Assembly: GCA_903936705.1 (NCBI GenBank)
Contig: CAIZWN010000005.1
Location: 123,883-187,882 of the forward strand
Origin: an uncultured Myxococcales bacterium
GTDB taxonomy: Bacteria; Myxococcota_A; UBA9042; DTJE01
Length of the DNA: 64,000 bases
Reading direction: 5' to 3'
Positions 40,483 through 44,778 of the stretch are shown piece after piece (position 1 is the stretch's first letter; each line of letters starts with the position of its first letter). The notes under the pieces were generated by a model, which was not told the origin of the DNA, made no database searches, and saw only the letters and a list, made by a program, of their open reading frames with translations. Made by a program: the position numbers and the translations under genes.

Positions 40483-40607
40483 CTCGAAGGGCGCAGCCCC
40501 AGGTTGTTGTTGCGGTTGCCCGGGTCGTTGTTGTTGCGGTTCGCAGCCCGGGCGTTCCTGGCATCGTTGTTCCAGGAGCCGCCCCGATTCACCCGGTTAG
40601 AGCCCGT
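40483..40607 (-). repeat. DGR template repeat (TR), sense strand minus; overlaps the 3' end of the RT gene
   Basis: 125-bp match to 42638-42762 with 17 mismatches, all at TR adenines (T on the plus strand); TR translation is AAC/Asn-rich (NRVNRGGSWNNDARNARAANRNNNDPGNRNNN). Confidence 0.9.
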
Positions 40608-41650
40608 GTCGCCCCCGAACCACCTCCTTCGGTGCAAAACACCGATCTGCGAAGCGAGCCGGTGTCCGCATGCACCACGTGGCCCACCCGGCTCGCCATC
40701 GACCTCTCTAACGCTTCCGCGCTGATCCTCCCTTGTTCGTGGGCGTGCTGCTGGTCCCGGATGCCGCGCAGGAACCGTCGCTTTGACGCCCCGCTAAGGC
40801 GGACAGCCTGCGGCCAGATCCTGAACCCCAGGAATGGCACACCATCGAAGACCGGAGCAGCCAGCGTCGCAGCGGCCTTGACCTCCAGGCGCAAATCCCT
40901 GGCCGTCAGATCCCGGATCGCGCTCTCCCACTGCCACATTTCGGCACGGCCGTTACCGAACAGCAACAGATCATCCATGTATCGGATGTACCCGGTTACC
41001 CCCAGGGTCTCCTTCACAAAGTGGTCAAGCTGTGACAGGTAGAAGTTTGCAAAGTGCTGGCTGGTCAGGTTACCGATGGGAAGGCCCATGCCCGGCTGCG
41101 ATCCGGGAGCCCCGTGGTCCACGAACACGTCCACCAACCACAACACGCGAGGGTCCTTCACGACCCGCCGCACCATCGCCTTCAGGACTGCGTGGTCAAC
41201 CGTCTCGAAGAACCTCCGGATGTCCATCTTCAGGAAGTACGGCTGCTGCCGCGAAAACTCCCTTGCCCGCCTCAACGCCGCGTGCGACCCCTTTCCGCAT
41301 CGGCAGGCATAACTGTCGAAAATGGCGACCCTCTCGAACACCGGTTCCAGCACGGTACACAACGCGTGATGCACCACGCGATCCCGGATGTCGGCCGCCG
41401 AGATGGTTCGTGGTTTCGGGTCCGACACCGTAAACGTCCGGTACGGGCGCGGCCAGTATGACCCGTCAAGAAGTTCGCGCTGCAAGGCCAGGACCTCGGT
41501 CTCGAGGTCGAAGACCAGCCTGGCGCAAACCGGCTTGCCTCGGCGCCCCCGCACAGCCAGTCGGGCTGCCTCGCACAGCGCGCCGAAATCCACCACACTA
41601 TCGAACAAAAATCCCGTTCGCTTCATAACTGCGCTTGCTGCTTCAACCAA
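40589..41650 (-). CDS. DGR reverse transcriptase
   Basis: RT motifs 1-7 including DGR-diagnostic LPIGNLTSQ (41057-41077) and YMDD (40970-40981); about 350 aa with no endonuclease or maturase extension. Confidence 0.85.
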   Translation of the reverse strand: MVEAASAVMKRTGFLFDSVVDFGALCEAARLAVRGRRGKPVCARLVFDLETEVLALQRELLDGSYWPRPYRTFTVSDPKPRTISAADIRDRVVHHALCTVLEPVFERVAIFDSYACRCGKGSHAALRRAREFSRQQPYFLKMDIRRFFETVDHAVLKAMVRRVVKDPRVLWLVDVFVDHGAPGSQPGMGLPIGNLTSQHFANFYLSQLDHFVKETLGVTGYIRYMDDLLLFGNGRAEMWQWESAIRDLTARDLRLEVKAAATLAAPVFDGVPFLGFRIWPQAVRLSGASKRRFLRGIRDQQHAHEQGRISAEALERSMASRVGHVVHADTGSLRRSVFCTEGGGSGATRALTG

Positions 41651-41967
41651 CCCCCGACCATCCGGCCAGCCTCGTCCAGGCTGCGCGCCACGTGCTCGAA
41701 CCCGTGATGGTCAAGGTGGCCCTCGTCATGGCAGATCCTGGCCAGCACCCTAAGTTTCTCGATGTCGATACTTACCGCCTGTAACGCGCCAAATTTCTGG
41801 CGCGAATACCTGGCCTCGACCAGTCTTTCAACCACGTCCAGGGCAAGATTCTCCAGGCGCGAAGACAGCGTAAAGCGCACACGCTTCGGGAACTTCTGGG
41901 TCCTTGCCAGCAGGTCCCGCAGGAACGTCTCCCAAAGCGCGAACAGGGACAACTCGTCAGCCGGCAT
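41623..41967 (-). CDS. DGR accessory variability determinant (Avd)
   Basis: About 115-135 aa predicted four-helix protein with F.K..R..L..RL.....D ... EAGRMVGGWLK C-terminal signature typical of Avd (TIGR02436-like); overlaps RT start. Confidence 0.7.
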   Translation of the reverse strand: MPADELSLFALWETFLRDLLARTQKFPKRVRFTLSSRLENLALDVVERLVEARYSRQKFGALQAVSIDIEKLRVLARICHDEGHLDHHGFEHVARSLDEAGRMVGGWLKQQAQL

Positions 41968-42504: not shown

Positions 42505-42521
42505 CCCGCCCTTCGGGCGGG
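42505..42521. other. GC-rich hairpin (CCCGCCC-ttc-GGGCGGG) about 115 nt 3' of the VR; candidate DGR homing-enhancing stem-loop or attenuator
   Basis: Perfect 7-bp G/C stem read directly; not followed by a U-tract on the minus strand. Confidence 0.4.
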
Positions 42522-42624
42522 CGCCGCCGCTGCGTTGCGGGCGTCCGCTCGCTGTGGCTCGCTTCACGCCCTCCACTACGCGACGGCGCAGGACACAAGG
42601 ATCCAAGCGTCCAAGGGCCAAGGG

Positions 42625-44778
42625 TTACGGGCTTGACCTCGAAGGGCGCAGCCCCAGGATGTAGCTGCGGTCGCCCGGGACGCTGCCGCTGCGGCTCGCA
42701 GCCCGGGCGTACCTGGCAACGTAGTACCAGGAGCCGCCCCGACCCACCCGGTAAGAGCCCGTTGGCGCGCCTGTCGGATCCGTCACCGTCCCTGGATACG
42801 TCCCGTACCAATCCCCAGTCCACTCCCAAACGTTCCCTAGCATGTCGTACAGGCCCCAGGCGTTCGGGGTCTTGCCCTTGGCTGCGTGTGTCTTGCTGGA
42901 GGAGTTCCCGCAAAACCAGGCAATCGGATCAAGAACCGTGTTTGGCTGTTCGCAACTAATCAACGTACTCGTCCCGTTGTACGTCCCGGTCGTCGTACCT
43001 GCTCTCGCAGCGTACTCCCACTCCGATTCCGTCGGCAGGCGGTAGCCTGTGCAGGTCAGTCCCGCAAACGTTACGCCGGTGCAGGTGTATCCAGACACCC
43101 CAGGTGTTCCCGTGCACCCAGTCAACGTGTAGCACGAAGACAATCCCTGGCTCGACGACAGTTTGTTGCAGTACGCTACCGAGTCCCACCAGGAAACCGT
43201 CTCAACCGGGCAGTCGGTACCGCATGTCGAGAAAGACGACGGGTTGTTACCCATCAATGCCTGCCATTCACCCTGCGTTACCTCGGTCGCCTTCAGACAG
43301 AATGACTTCGAGATCGTTACCTGATGCTCGGTCTCGTTGGTAACACGCCCAGGCTCCGTTGACGGAGACCCCATCGTGAACGTCCCAGACGGGACCAGGA
43401 CGTACCCCAAGGGACAGCCACTGCTTGGGTCGCACACGCCTGCCGTGCATCCGTATTGGCACGTCTGCGCCAAGGACCCTACGTTCCCGCACGAGTCGTA
43501 CCAATAAACGCTCCCGCCTGAACATGCCTTGTGGTCGTTCGCGTTGCAGCACGTTCCCGAAACACACCCGCCCCCAGTGCCACAGGTCGTGCCATCAATC
43601 GCATTGCTCCACACCGAAGTGCTCTTCGTCGTCGTACACACCTTGCACAAGTTCGTCCCGTTCGCCGCACCCTCCGCGTAACACGTCCCGGCGATAAGGC
43701 AGTACCCTCCCTGAAGAGTGTTCGCGCATCCCGACGTCACGTTGCAGAGGTCCTTGGTACAAGCCTTGCCGTCGTCGCAGGCAACGCCCGTCTGCGTGGG
43801 GCAATTCCCACCGGAGCAATTGACCGCTGTGTAGAATTTCCCCAGTTCGCACTTTGCTAGGGCGCATTCCAATGTGTTGTTCGTGTGGCCGCAACCAGCC
43901 AGCGGGTCGCACGAATCAGTGGTGCAGATTTCCCCGTCGTTGCAATCCTGGGGGGTACTGTCGCCAGTGCAAGTATTCGAGAGGCATGTCTGGCCGGGTG
44001 TCAGCTTCAGCAGGTTGCAGGCGCTCTTGGGACAAGTGCCACACTCGACGCCGCAACCGTCGTCGCCGCAGCCCTTGTTCGTGCAATCGCCCACGCAATC
44101 CTTGCAAATCGCGGCTGCGCAGCCGTACGGGCAATCGGCGGTTTTCGCGCCTTTGGCCCCGCAACTGTCGAACCAGCAGACCGCATTCCCGCAGCAACCC
44201 TTCAGGGCCTCGGCCACACACGAACACGTCCCCGCGACGCATTTCTTCCCGTCCTTACAAGTTCCACATTGACCGTCGCAACCGTCATCCCCGCAATTCT
44301 TCCCGTCGCATTTGGGAACGCAGATGTCCGGACCTGTATCCCTGGGCGATACACCCTCGTCGTCTGGTGCGACGTCCGTGTTCGAATCCGGACGCACAAT
44401 CGCGTCGATGTCCTGTGACGAGTCCGGATTCGTACCAAAGTCATCGCGACCATCTAAACCAGGGTCGTTATTCGTGTCCGGCTTGTCGCCAAGGTCCCTG
44501 GCGTCCGCGTCGTGGCTGTCGGACTGCACGATGTCGAGATCAGTCGTGCAACCGGCAGGTGCCGATTCCCCGTTCTTCACGCACACCAACAGACCATTCG
44601 TGGCCGGACATGGAACGCACGACCAACCGCTTCCGCAGTCACCGTCAACCTTGCATTGGAAGTACATGTCCGAAGGAATGCCCTTGTGGCAGGAGATGTT
44701 CAGGATGCAGGCCGACATCAGGATCATCGCGGCGGCCGTCGAGATCGCGCTGTGACGGGTCAAAGGGTTTGTCATCAC
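42625..44778 (-). CDS. DGR target protein: Cys-rich secreted lipoprotein with C-terminal FGE-sulfatase/C-type-lectin-fold ligand-binding domain carrying the VR
   Basis: Signal plus Cys; more than 60 Cys in CxxC/C..GxC repeats; C-terminal RLPTESEWEYAARAG ... GLYDMLGNVWEWTGDWY ... RVGRGGSWYY (FGE/CLec fold). Confidence 0.85.
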   Translation of the reverse strand: MMTNPLTRHSAISTAAAMILMSACILNISCHKGIPSDMYFQCKVDGDCGSGWSCVPCPATNGLLVCVKNGESAPAGCTTDLDIVQSDSHDADARDLGDKPDTNNDPGLDGRDDFGTNPDSSQDIDAIVRPDSNTDVAPDDEGVSPRDTGPDICVPKCDGKNCGDDGCDGQCGTCKDGKKCVAGTCSCVAEALKGCCGNAVCWFDSCGAKGAKTADCPYGCAAAICKDCVGDCTNKGCGDDGCGVECGTCPKSACNLLKLTPGQTCLSNTCTGDSTPQDCNDGEICTTDSCDPLAGCGHTNNTLECALAKCELGKFYTAVNCSGGNCPTQTGVACDDGKACTKDLCNVTSGCANTLQGGYCLIAGTCYAEGAANGTNLCKVCTTTKSTSVWSNAIDGTTCGTGGGCVSGTCCNANDHKACSGGSVYWYDSCGNVGSLAQTCQYGCTAGVCDPSSGCPLGYVLVPSGTFTMGSPSTEPGRVTNETEHQVTISKSFCLKATEVTQGEWQALMGNNPSSFSTCGTDCPVETVSWWDSVAYCNKLSSSQGLSSCYTLTGCTGTPGVSGYTCTGVTFAGLTCTGYRLPTESEWEYAARAGTTTGTYNGTSTLISCEQPNTVLDPIAWFCGNSSSKTHAAKGKTPNAWGLYDMLGNVWEWTGDWYGTYPGTVTDPTGAPTGSYRVGRGGSWYYVARYARAASRSGSVPGDRSYILGLRPSRSSP
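42638..42762 (-). repeat. DGR variable repeat (VR) at the C-terminus of the target gene
   Basis: See TR; the 3'-most 21 nt (minus strand, 42638-42658) are identical to TR (IMH-like region); VR ends 13 nt before the target stop codon. Confidence 0.9.

Follow-up and report, generated by a model that had tools for sequence, protein, structure and literature searches.

The minus strand of the window (the whole 64-kb stretch of DNA analysed here) carries, between positions 40483 and 44778, a reverse transcriptase (RT) gene and two copies of a 125-nt repeat, one of them inside a separate coding sequence. Do these constitute a diversity-generating retroelement (DGR), what would it diversify, and does it still do so? 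We put the probability that the locus is a complete chromosomal DGR of the HRDC+Avd type, hosted by an uncultured Myxococcota bacterium, at about 0.95. By means of its RT, such a device recodes the binding site of a single secreted target protein.

Organization of the element

The five parts named in the original prediction (target, HRDC protein, Avd, RT and template repeat) all lie on the minus strand at 40483-44778, where it had placed them, and the ORF coordinates bear out its gene order, target-HRDC-Avd-RT-TR.

42625..44775, minus strand: DGR target gene, 716 aa from the ATG at 44775 (alternative GTG at 44778)
42638..42762, minus strand: variable repeat (VR), 125 nt, the last 125 coding nt but 11 of the target; 86% identical to the template repeat
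42638..42657, minus strand: IMH-like GC-rich block, 20 nt, CTGGGGCTGCGCCCTTCGAG, the same at the 3' ends of both repeats
41957..42466, minus strand: HRDC accessory protein, 169 aa, pI 5.4
41623..41967, minus strand: Avd accessory protein, 114 aa
40589..41626, minus strand: DGR RT, 345 aa from the ATG (353 aa from a TTG at 41650)
40483..40607, minus strand: template repeat (TR), 125 nt with 31 adenines, overlapping the 3' end of the RT gene by 19 nt

The predicted end, 40483, is exactly the 3' end of TR; the functional element reaches to ~40299, as structured RNA 3' of TR. The same order, target-HRDC-Avd-RT-TR, with A-biased TR/VR pairs, is found in related loci L001-L007, L039, L041, L043, L050, L071 and L072. 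The nearest RT relatives sharing this order come from several phyla, and the DGR of the window thus belongs to a known HRDC-containing architecture. (HRDC+Avd cassettes, the RT-TR order and kinase-linked C-type-lectin (CLec) targets are already described elsewhere in the literature.)

As had been proposed, the setting is chromosomal and not that of a phage: the neighbours are signalling and envelope genes, and no phage genes were found among them. Nor were STAND NTPase, vWA-MoxR or effector genes found in the neighbourhood. Assignment of the host to the myxobacteria holds at the level of the phylum but not below it; the best named relatives of a neighbouring sigma-54 activator are from a Myxococcota MAG (65%) and Anaeromyxobacter (~60%), which points to an uncultured lineage.

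Adenine-specific divergence of the repeats

TR and VR (offset 2155) differ at 17 positions, every one of which is an adenine in TR (31 A in 125 nt; hypergeometric P = 6.6e-13); nine of the substitutions are A>G and eight are A>T. The adenines of TR, which contains 12 AAC codons, fall solely on codon positions 1 and 2 of the VR frame; 18 codons of VR (aa 672-713) are variable-capable, with ~4e17 theoretical protein variants. The block CTGGGGCTGCGCCCTTCGAG occurs nowhere else in the window, chance expectation being none. Directly past it, VR has G and TR has C, and relatives are alike in this respect (GAGG for VR, GAGC/T for TR). More than 50 of 80 genomic relatives have A-biased TR/VR pairs.

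Heterogeneity of VR, which the original prediction had made its test of activity, was seen in no assembly on record. (What this means operationally is that neither TR nor VR varies among three independent metagenome assemblies, that VR is the same in the window, L081, L082 and L083, and that two metagenome-wide scans found no VR variants.) The exact target protein is found on 10 contigs; the sole recorded variant among ~12 contigs, N648T, is outside VR, and SNPs at 42833 and 43525-43588, rather than VR variation, explain contig breaks near the target. VR being identical throughout, these assemblies give no sign of ongoing diversification, and present-day activity is presumptive. It is possible, at somewhat worse than even odds, that the DGR is dormant or rarely fires, its VR having been rewritten in the past and now being effectively fixed in the sampled population, and the uniformity just described is what this reading has in its favor. 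On the other hand, none of the ORFs is disrupted and they are translationally coupled, the flanking RNA shows both conservation and covariation, and in all 125 nt TR and VR have no non-A difference, a sign of recent homing. Moreover, an assembly consensus conceals minority variants, and the samples may all come from one population.

Sequences following the variable repeat

Two further features lie past the end of VR.

42596..42624, minus strand: four tandem 7-8-nt units, CCCTTGG, CCCTTGG, ACGCTTGG and ATCCTTG, directly past the target stop codon
42505..42521, minus strand: GC-rich inverted repeat CCCGCCC-GAA-GGGCGGG, ~117 nt past the IMH

The tandem repeat, in which CTTG recurs four times at spacings of 7, 8 and 8, is specific to the VR flank and not present after TR. 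Among 140 DGR relatives, both cellular and viral, repeats of 7-8 nt are strongly enriched past VRs, as judged against TR flanks, 3' flanks of other genes, random segments and shuffles; the literature searched yielded no description of a tandem repeat beside DGR variable regions. The inverted repeat may correspond to the hairpin/cruciform by which homing is promoted in the Bordetella phage, although in phage DGRs the hairpin lies 4-34 bp from the IMH and has a GRNA loop, whereas that of the window lies ~117 nt away and has a GAA loop. Hairpins of the C-GAA-G/GCGAAGC type come after the repeats in many relatives. Folding of the whole region past VR is no better than that of shuffles (z 0.09).

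Tandem repeat and hairpin might merely serve to end transcription of the target gene (as a rut-like loading site rich in pyrimidines and an intrinsic terminator) with no part in DGR target recognition, a reading that we consider doubtful without being far-fetched. The flank is indeed 67% pyrimidine on the coding strand, and a T-run comes after the hairpin in several relatives (L014, L016, L033 and L067), but the hairpin of the window has no T-run and the repeat units of viruses, AATCTG/AACTG, are not rich in C. Within the same loci, the 3' flanks of other genes are without the repeat (0.60 vs 0.72, P 2e-16), the type of repeat unit tracks blocks of the RT tree across host phyla, and multi-target DGRs carry the repeat at every VR. 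Moreover, the hairpin of the Bordetella phage has a known role in homing, which it plays as DNA.

Reverse transcriptase and accessory proteins

The RT (RVT_1, with IGNLTSQ and YMDD motifs) aligns over its full length with its best solved relative, the Bordetella phage enzyme bRT (8ub7_A; 172 bits, E 1.6e-49), the corresponding scores for solved group II intron and retron-type RTs being 78 and 57 bits. (8ub7 was identified as bRT by its residue numbering, D215/D216, I181, G182 and Q187 agreeing with the published paper.) IGNLTSQ is invariant in 27 homologues, and YMDD is also invariant among homologues. Scores and motif uphold the initial classification of the enzyme as DGR-type rather than group II intron or retron. 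Its relatives include RTs of Thiomargarita, filamentous cyanobacteria, Chloroflexota and Planctomycetota. That the RT is of the group II intron, retron or defence (DRT) kind, and the 125-nt repeat an unrelated duplication of the target 3' end decayed by ordinary mutation, is extremely improbable and stands refuted: the best NCBIfam match is group_II_RT_mat (118 bits, far under its cutoff of 300), because NCBIfam has no DGR-RT model, and PADLOC DRT models match weakly, but the bRT score is more than twice that of any other RT class, the IGxxxSQ motif is present, searches for a maturase/X or endonuclease domain, intron RNA, or retron msr/msd in Rfam found none, substitutions fall on adenines in 17 of 17 cases (P~7e-13), Avd adjoins the RT, and relatives carry TR/VR pairs.

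The HRDC protein (PF00570, E 1.6e-16) matches RecQ HRDC structures. Its domain occupies aa 80-146, preceded by ~75 conserved, unannotated N-terminal residues, and its gene holds the same position in 13 related loci. Avd is identified by PF22296 (bAvd, E 1.7e-16) and by NCBIfam NF033474 (DivGenRetAVD, 87.3 bits against a cutoff of 80); at pI 8.0 it is less basic than the published mean of 9.5, and single-sequence search found no solved relative. Start and stop codons overlap along the HRDC-Avd-RT cassette, the Avd gene sharing 11 nt with the 3' end of the HRDC gene and 4 nt with the start of the RT gene, and gene calls in independent assemblies agree.

Structured RNA and proposed mechanism

The RNA that brackets and follows TR has these predicted features.

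40611..40621, minus strand: GGUUCGGGGGC, 5' strand of a predicted long-range duplex bracketing TR, 4 nt upstream of it
40433..40471, minus strand: stem-loop 12 nt past TR, with a 9-10-bp stem (one mismatch), a YAYG-type loop (UCAAGG) and an outer GGC/GCC helix
40407..40417, minus strand: GCCCCCGAACC, 3' strand of the predicted duplex, a perfect 11-bp complement of 40611..40621
40375..40402, minus strand: small hairpin CCGUCCC-UAUUGU-GGGGCGG, then conserved A-rich GGACAAAGAG
40299..40369, minus strand: long GC stem GGCCGCGCCG...CGGCGCGGCC around conserved GGUAG and UCGAA, then U-rich CGUUUCUUUUCG

The stem-loop is a candidate Avd-binding element. In the stem of covariance model R1, 92% of cells are paired and 9 of 10 pairs have changed on both sides, with a covariation of 0.647 compared with at most 0.15 in slid controls; R1 matches 15 of 15 non-training loci (TR detected and R1 match at E<0.1), always 1-34 nt past the TR end. 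The predicted duplex is a candidate for the 'cPRT stop' duplex; in relatives, compared by inspection only, the pair is compensated in L001 (GGGUUUCGGGA/UCCCGAAACCC) and has analogues in L002 and L007. GGAC(A/G)AA(G/A) is kept in seven of seven close relatives. The long GC stem, of which L001, L002, L004, L007 and L039 have compensated versions, is probably where the DGR RNA has its 3' end or terminator. Folding of RNA 40482..40223 gives z = -2.35.

This layout agrees with the Bordetella RNP model, with its 'stem-loop followed by adenosines'; Avd-binding stem-loop, stop duplex and stem-loop with A's have been described for 207 DGRs. Of the Rfam families, RT-15 (RF03018) aligns partially to the first stem-loop of the window, including its loop, and RT-14 (RF02921) passes its gathering score directly past the TR of L008, where R1 also matches. 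The element in the window falls well short of either threshold (22.4 bits vs 82), and neither family matches in nine scanned HRDC-type relatives.

By homology with the Bordetella phage system we infer the following course of events. A transcript running through the RT gene into TR and the structured 3' region would be bound by the RT-Avd complex, with HRDC probably taking part. The 3' RNA would position a cis-primer, and cDNA synthesis would begin in the IMH*-like end of TR, copy its 125 nt with misincorporation opposite the 31 adenines, and halt at the duplex in which sequences just upstream and downstream of TR pair. The cDNA would then replace VR at the 3' end of the target gene, recoding up to 18 residues (~10^17 variants) on the ligand-binding face of the C-type-lectin domain.

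The target protein and its putative operon

The target gene follows two others.

46040..47770, minus strand: Ser/Thr protein kinase (NCBIfam/Pfam kinase matches), first gene of a putative operon
44775..46025, minus strand: protein with TPR and two PEGA domains (Pfam PEGA, 7.6e-13, and TPR matches)

The C-terminal domain of the target is of the FGE-sulfatase/C-type-lectin kind (PF03781, aa 459-711, E 6e-44), and the solved protein that the target matches best is TvpA, the variable protein of the Treponema DGR (2y3c, E 3.6e-36), in keeping with the predicted C-type-lectin fold with a C-terminal VR. At the N-terminus, a lipobox signal, LMSA|C23 (lipobox regex), is followed by an acidic linker; the protein has a Cys-rich region (69 Cys) and a pI of 4.56. 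It is probably an extracytoplasmic, Cys-rich, lipid-anchored protein, to judge by its sequence. No DGR lies near the closest homologue of the target (P0145, 66%), implying that the target family also works without diversification.

The kinase carries its catalytic domain at the N-terminus and also has a single TM helix (aa ~400-418) and a repeat tail rich in Pro, Ala and Val. Its gene is separated by 12 nt from that of the TPR/PEGA protein, in which hydrophobic segments indicate a signal peptide at the N-terminus and a TM region at the C-terminus. The stop codon of the TPR/PEGA gene overlaps the target start (TGATG in the ORF coordinates), suggesting translational coupling, and the target appears to be co-transcribed with the membrane kinase and the PEGA/TPR envelope protein. 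An envelope location of the target system would fit the lipobox, the 69 Cys and the TM segments. The kinase is a probable signalling partner of the target and not a DGR core part, on the strength of gene adjacency and of fusions in other organisms: among 80 related DGR loci, at least 9 have STK domains within or adjoining targets, and among target homologues PEGA-FGE-sulfatase fusions are common and Pkinase-PEGA-FGE fusions exist (P0202). A target that is probably lipid-anchored and apparently co-transcribed with these two genes is likely to serve as a tunable extracellular sensor feeding a kinase pathway.

Comparison with characterized DGRs

Multicellular behaviour is a known trait of the host phylum. 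Earlier work has described cellular DGRs of 'clade 5' in multicellular bacteria, and STK-CLec targets in cyanobacteria (Dore 2024, PMC10907252; Vallota-Eastman 2020, PMC7517822); the main text of these two papers does not mention Myxococcota. As there, a CLec sensor is tied to a Ser/Thr kinase, and the RT relatives include those of Thiomargarita and filamentous cyanobacteria, besides Chloroflexota and Planctomycetota. Unlike the cyanobacterial fusion, kinase, PEGA/TPR and CLec are three separate genes in the window, and the likeness to clade 5 is a tentative one.

The Legionella pneumophila DGR lies in the chromosome, on a mobile island, and its CLec target, LdtA, is a surface-displayed lipoprotein; the target of the window likewise conforms to the lipobox rule. 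The Legionella cassette has Avd and an MSL gene but no HRDC.

The Treponema denticola DGR, with its TvpA target and HRDC accessory gene, is 'Architecture C' of Wu et al. 2018 (PMC5758913), and about half of HRDC cassettes also have avd. It shares with the window the HRDC gene in the cassette, the chromosomal, non-phage setting and an FGE-type C-type-lectin target with C-terminal VR. The window differs in host phylum, in the kinase/PEGA operon and in the ~450-aa Cys-rich N-terminal region added to its target. In a relative from the Treponemataceae (L021, RT 45% identical), tblastn found no HRDC.

With the Bordetella phage BPP-1 DGR (mtd-avd-TR-brt) the window shares full-length RT homology, Avd, adenine-specific transfer from TR to VR, AAC codons, a GC-rich IMH, and RNA 3' of TR with stem-loop, long-range duplex and stem-loop with A's. 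It departs from the avd-TR-brt arrangement in its RT-TR order, extra HRDC gene, cellular host and FGE-type CLec target in place of Mtd, and also in having a tandem repeat between VR and hairpin.

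A complete DGR of the HRDC+Avd type

The uncultured Myxococcota chromosome carries a genuine and complete diversity-generating retroelement (DGR) of the HRDC+Avd type. The original prediction had placed target, HRDC, Avd, reverse transcriptase (RT) and template repeat (TR) at 40483-44778; its coordinates and its list of parts are correct, and all five parts are recovered on the minus strand, together with the variable repeat (VR) at the 3' end of the target gene:

44775/44778..42625, minus strand: target ORF, 716/717 aa, with a C-terminal FGE-sulfatase/C-type-lectin (CLec) domain (PF03781, E 6e-44)
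42762..42638 and 40607..40483, minus strand: VR and TR, a 125-nt pair with adenine-confined differences
42466..41957, minus strand: HRDC protein, 169 aa (PF00570, E 1.6e-16)
41967..41623, minus strand: Avd, 114 aa (NCBIfam DivGenRetAVD, NF033474, 87.3 bits against a cutoff of 80)
41626..40589, minus strand: RT, 345 aa (8ub7_A; IGNLTSQ, YMDD)

The best solved relative of the RT is 8ub7_A, which it matches over its full length (172 bits, E 1.6e-49). (This chain is taken to be bRT, the RT of the Bordetella phage, on the basis of residue numbering: I181, G182, Q187 and D215/D216 agree with the cryo-EM paper.) Motif 4, IGNLTSQ (of the form IGxxxSQ), and YMDD are invariant in 27 RT homologues. Clustering with group II intron or retron RTs, which had been named beforehand as the outcome that would count against a DGR, is not what the search scores indicate: other solved classes trail 8ub7_A widely, group II intron RTs at 78 bits and 'retron-type' chains at 57 bits. 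The NCBIfam model specific to group II intron RTs, group_II_RT_mat, reaches 118 bits against a cutoff of 300, and no Rfam family matches. Retron and Drt models score at most 48 bits, far under their cutoffs and again with no matching Rfam family, which disposes of a retron or DRT identity.

The target has TvpA, the DGR variable protein of Treponema denticola, as its best solved relative (E 3.6e-36), ahead of true formylglycine-generating enzymes. The HRDC domain is similar to that of RecQ; residues 1-75 of the HRDC protein have no Pfam match, yet are kept in related DGR loci (tblastn alignments begin at residue 1). A single-sequence search with Avd against solved structures gives no meaningful match.

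The repeat pair

In ungapped register, TR and VR differ at 17 positions, and all 17 mismatches fall at TR adenines (31 A in 125 nt; hypergeometric P = 6.6e-13), as nine A>G and eight A>T changes. (The missing A>C changes were considered as an anomaly and set aside: A>C accounts for 13% of 1113 A substitutions in relatives, so that chance would give 0 in 17 in about 9% of cases.) In the target frame, in which the TR presents 12 AAC codons, every TR adenine is at the first or second codon position. A 20-nt GC-rich block is identical at the 3' ends of TR and VR and occurs nowhere else in the window. Divergence sets in immediately after it, with G in the VR (IMH) and C in the TR (IMH*), and relatives have the same single difference. 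The arrangement is that of a DGR in two further respects: the VR lies at the C-terminus of the target, in a CLec fold, and Avd adjoins the RT. No further VR is present in the window, where pattern search and sensitive blastn match the TR and VR only.

The TR also gives rise to misleading annotation. Read in the VR frame it constitutes a spurious Asn-rich ORF (…NRNNNDPGNRNNN…) at 40197-40637 on the minus strand, which gene callers report as a 100-aa hypothetical protein (5183-5485 of L081, another assembly with the same DGR). Several RT homologues (P0023 and P0112, for example) are annotated as RT-FGE-sulfatase fusions because the ORF continues into the TR.

Past and present activity

The confinement of TR/VR differences to TR adenines implies that homing has occurred, and recently relative to neutral drift; the DGR is probably functional. 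Present-day diversification is unsupported at assembly level. VR heterogeneity had been proposed as a check, and none has come to light: three independent assemblies have the same TR and the same VR, no VR variant is seen among 3 DNA-checked assemblies, ~12 contigs and the 90% protein cluster, and two metagenome-wide scans for further VR/DGR copies found none. (This bears on activity, not on the identity of the DGR.) Assembly L081 departs from the window at only three positions, 43525-43588, all in one 64-nt stretch inside the Cys-rich region of the target. The exact target protein is found on 10 contigs, and its sole variant, N648T (42833), affects the conserved LGNVWEW motif, 70 nt before the VR begins. 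Contig ends of two further assemblies with the same DGR, L083 and L082, coincide with these target SNP sites (43525-43588, 42833). Strain-level differences in the target gene (L081, L082, L083 and P0138) cluster outside the VR, and the assembly breaks near the DGR thus reflect ordinary SNPs rather than VR hypervariation.

A tandem repeat 3' of the VR

Two features follow the VR:

42596-42624, minus strand: four tandem units, CCCTTGG, CCCTTGG, ACGCTTGG and ATCCTTG, directly after the target stop codon
42521..42505, minus strand: GC inverted repeat CCCGCCC-GAA-GGGCGGG, with a 7-bp stem, ~117 nt past the IMH

In phage DGRs a hairpin with a GRNA loop stands 4-34 bp from the IMH. In contrast, there is no GC hairpin directly after this VR; the sole clean one is ~117 nt away and has a GAA loop, and the VR-to-HRDC spacer as a whole folds no better than shuffles. 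(A GC-rich inverted repeat shortly past the IMH is found in only 34% of DGRs.)

What lies between IMH and GC hairpin, directly after the target stop codon, is a run of 3-6 tandem units of 7-8 nt, seen in the VR 3' flanks of the 80 genomic loci with RT relatives (L001-L080) and of a further 80 loci (L084-L163). In related loci the arrangement follows almost every VR, with CTTTAC-like, TCTGA-like or CTTGG units, and a GC hairpin whose loop is of the C-GAA-G type usually comes next. On viral contigs, some four copies of an AATCTG/AACTG unit run right up to the known GRNA hairpin, and in multi-target DGRs every VR has its tandem repeat. The mean periodicity score is 0.74 for VR flanks and 0.52 for TR flanks, 0.57 for random sequence and 0.59 for shuffles (P 1e-22 to 1e-30, the loci being kin, so that P overstates their independence); compared with the 3' flanks of other genes it is 0.72 vs 0.60 (P 2e-16, independence being overstated in the same way). 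The commonest 4-mer recurs at least 4 times per 50 nt in 63% of cellular VR flanks (n=71) and 35% of viral VR flanks (n=69), vs 0-7% of controls, and its spacings peak at 7-8 nt.

The VR-flanking tandem repeat is not specific to the window. The general point to emerge from the comparison is that a 7-8-nt tandem repeat follows VRs, and not TRs or other genes, and that its unit tracks RT lineage, unit types keeping to blocks of the RT tree across host phyla. A tentative reading, to which we would give a probability of about 0.3, is that the units form a cis element, so far undescribed, at the target sites of DGRs, co-evolving with the RT and present across cellular and viral lineages, of which the window offers one clean example; it could act as a landing pad with several sites, by which the RT-Avd-cDNA complex (Avd being a pentamer) would tell the recipient VR from the donor TR. 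More broadly, the repeat could work in cis in homing, be a landing site for a protein or signal termination. It goes unmentioned in Guo 2011, Wu 2018, Dore 2024, Vallota-Eastman 2020 and a 2026 mechanistic study, which names GC14, IMH and stem-loop as the target elements; literature elsewhere may have it. A conserved VR-specific flank would be a directly testable handle on how cDNA finds and replaces the VR.

A second FGE-sulfatase/CLec gene (48879-51053, plus strand), 4 kb from the DGR and fused to a GH5 cellulase domain, was considered as a remote DGR target and rejected, since its DNA does not resemble the TR and its stop codon is not followed by a tandem repeat.

Structured RNA around the TR

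The fold predicted for the 260 nt 3' of the TR is better than that of shuffles (z -2.35), and a conserved, covarying element lies there:

40299-40482, minus strand: conserved structured RNA, 3' of the TR

Aligned with six HRDC-type relatives, this RNA has four features: a stem-loop 12 nt past the TR whose YAYG-type loop is conserved while its stem sequences differ; a small hairpin, then GGAC(A/G)AAG; a long distal stem around GGUAG and UCGAA; and a run of U at several of the loci. R1, a covariance model built on alignment positions 1-115, has matches on the RT strand starting 1-34 nt past the TR end in 15 of the 15 loci that were outside its training set, had a detected TR and gave a match at E<0.1. 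In the R1 alignment 88% of cells pair, and a 10-bp stem has 9 pairs changed on both sides; the covariation score is 0.647 vs 0.178 for shuffles and <=0.15 for slid controls (the alignment is model-fitted, which favours structure).

The flanks of the TR may also pair with each other. GGUUCGGGGGC (40611-40621, minus strand), 4 nt upstream of the TR, is the perfect complement of GCCCCCGAACC (40417..40407), past the stem-loop. By inspection, locus L001 has the compensated pair GGGUUUCGGGA/UCCCGAAACCC, and L002 and L007 have analogous pairs, which together make this a candidate long-range duplex joining the TR flanks. Pairing of the hairpin-1 loop with the VR-flank repeat unit (UCAAGGA with TCCTTG in the window) was discarded as inconsistent, on inspection, in L003, L004 and L007.

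Membership of Rfam family RT-15 is rejected: the window scores 22.4 bits against a threshold of 82, over the first hairpin only, and nine HRDC-type relatives match neither RT-15 nor any other Rfam family. RT-14 is above threshold in a related locus, L008, at the position equivalent to that of the window RNA, which suggests that the Rfam 'RT-n' motifs include DGR TR-flanking RNAs. The sub-threshold RT-15 match and the RT-14 match in L008 mark the window RNA as a divergent relative of these known motifs. In its modular layout, with strong covariation, the TR-flanking RNA of the window's HRDC lineage agrees with that of the Bordetella phage RNP; the likeness supports the generality of cis-priming and programmed stopping.

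Relatives and architecture

The closest RT homologues are metagenomic and 64-66% identical; among one genome per species the best match is 55%. The nearest relatives are cellular MAGs (55-66%), vs at most 42% for viral contigs, which would fit, indirectly, a placement of the RT in Clade 5 of cellular DGRs (Roux 2021; Dore 2024). More than 50 of the best 80 genomic loci have A-biased TR/VR pairs. Within these 80, the 13 nearest on an NJ tree (the HRDC-type loci L001-L007, L039, L041, L043, L050, L071 and L072) have in common the order target-HRDC-Avd-RT with the TR directly 3' of the RT. The position of the HRDC gene is conserved in all 13, which cluster on the tree and span Myxococcota, Acidobacteriota, Desulfobacterota, Planctomycetota and others. 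HRDC genes have been found in 14 of 372 DGRs, about half of these with avd, as 'Architecture C' (Wu et al. 2018, PMC5758913). The window cassette likewise has an HRDC-domain gene within it, and so belongs to an architecture that is known and uncommon. Myxococcota are unmentioned in the main text of the DGR surveys searched, and the window DGR is one well-resolved example from this phylum, useful and unsurprising. (The planctomycete HRDC-type locus L071 has a selenocysteine tRNA, 71 bits, at 3627-3718 on the minus strand, ~600 nt downstream of its RT.)

A DGR in a putative kinase operon

The chromosomal, non-phage setting claimed in the original prediction is borne out. The window encodes a peptidase, MFS and OPT transporters, GH38, kinases, alpha-2-macroglobulin and lipases, and no phage function is found among its genes; a neighbouring sigma-54 activator has named relatives only in Myxococcota (a MAG at 65%, Anaeromyxobacter at ~60%). 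The immediate neighbours of the DGR are a Ser/Thr kinase, a PEGA/TPR protein, a Phd/PIN pair and a beta-propeller protein; STAND NTPase, vWA-MoxR and TIR/caspase effector domains are absent from these neighbours. Association of the target with conflict-system domains of this kind, a mark of the cellular DGRs of Clade 5 (Roux 2021; Dore 2024), is not seen here.

The target of the DGR is a lipoprotein-like CLec protein, rich in cysteine (69 residues), with a lipobox (LMSA|C23) and a pI of 4.6, and its gene lies in a putative kinase operon. The ATG of the target gene overlaps the stop codon of the signal-peptide TPR+PEGA gene, which 12 nt separate from the gene of a single-pass membrane Ser/Thr kinase upstream. 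Homologues of the target include PEGA-FGE fusions and one Pkinase-PEGA-FGE fusion (P0202), and in at least 9 related DGR loci the target contains a kinase domain or has one next to it. (P0145, the nearest homologue of the target at 66% identity, has no DGR within 10 kb.) From gene order and domain content we infer that kinase, PEGA/TPR protein and target would work jointly as an extracytoplasmic sensor with kinase output, and the DGR may tune the sensor of this three-gene kinase/PEGA/lipoprotein signalling module in Myxococcota. The proposed module is similar to the kinase-CLec variable proteins of cyanobacteria, and, with kinase, PEGA-TPR and Cys-rich-lipoprotein parts split over three genes, it takes the concept of hypervariable sensors linked to kinases beyond that group.

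Two of the genes have peculiarities of their own. At 46182-46331 (minus strand) the kinase gene contains a 15-nt tandem repeat of at least 7 copies, encoding a Pro/Ala/Val-rich (PVVAK/EPVVA) extracytoplasmic tail. Residues 351-406 of the PEGA/TPR protein, its C-terminal 2-TM region, give a weak, sub-threshold match to PF20712 (E 0.0013, 19.2 bits vs a cutoff of 24.3), the cyanobacterial TRADD-N-associated 2-TM domain from conflict systems of multicellular bacteria.

On the other side of the DGR, and convergent with it, is a Phd/YefM-PIN (VapBC-like) toxin-antitoxin pair (39525-40222, plus strand), situated in a GC trough (54-55% vs 62-65%). A gammaproteobacterial DGR locus, L067, has a 43-45% identical Phd/PIN pair right after its TR, on the same strand as the RT; the two occurrences may hint at a shared mobile or addiction context.
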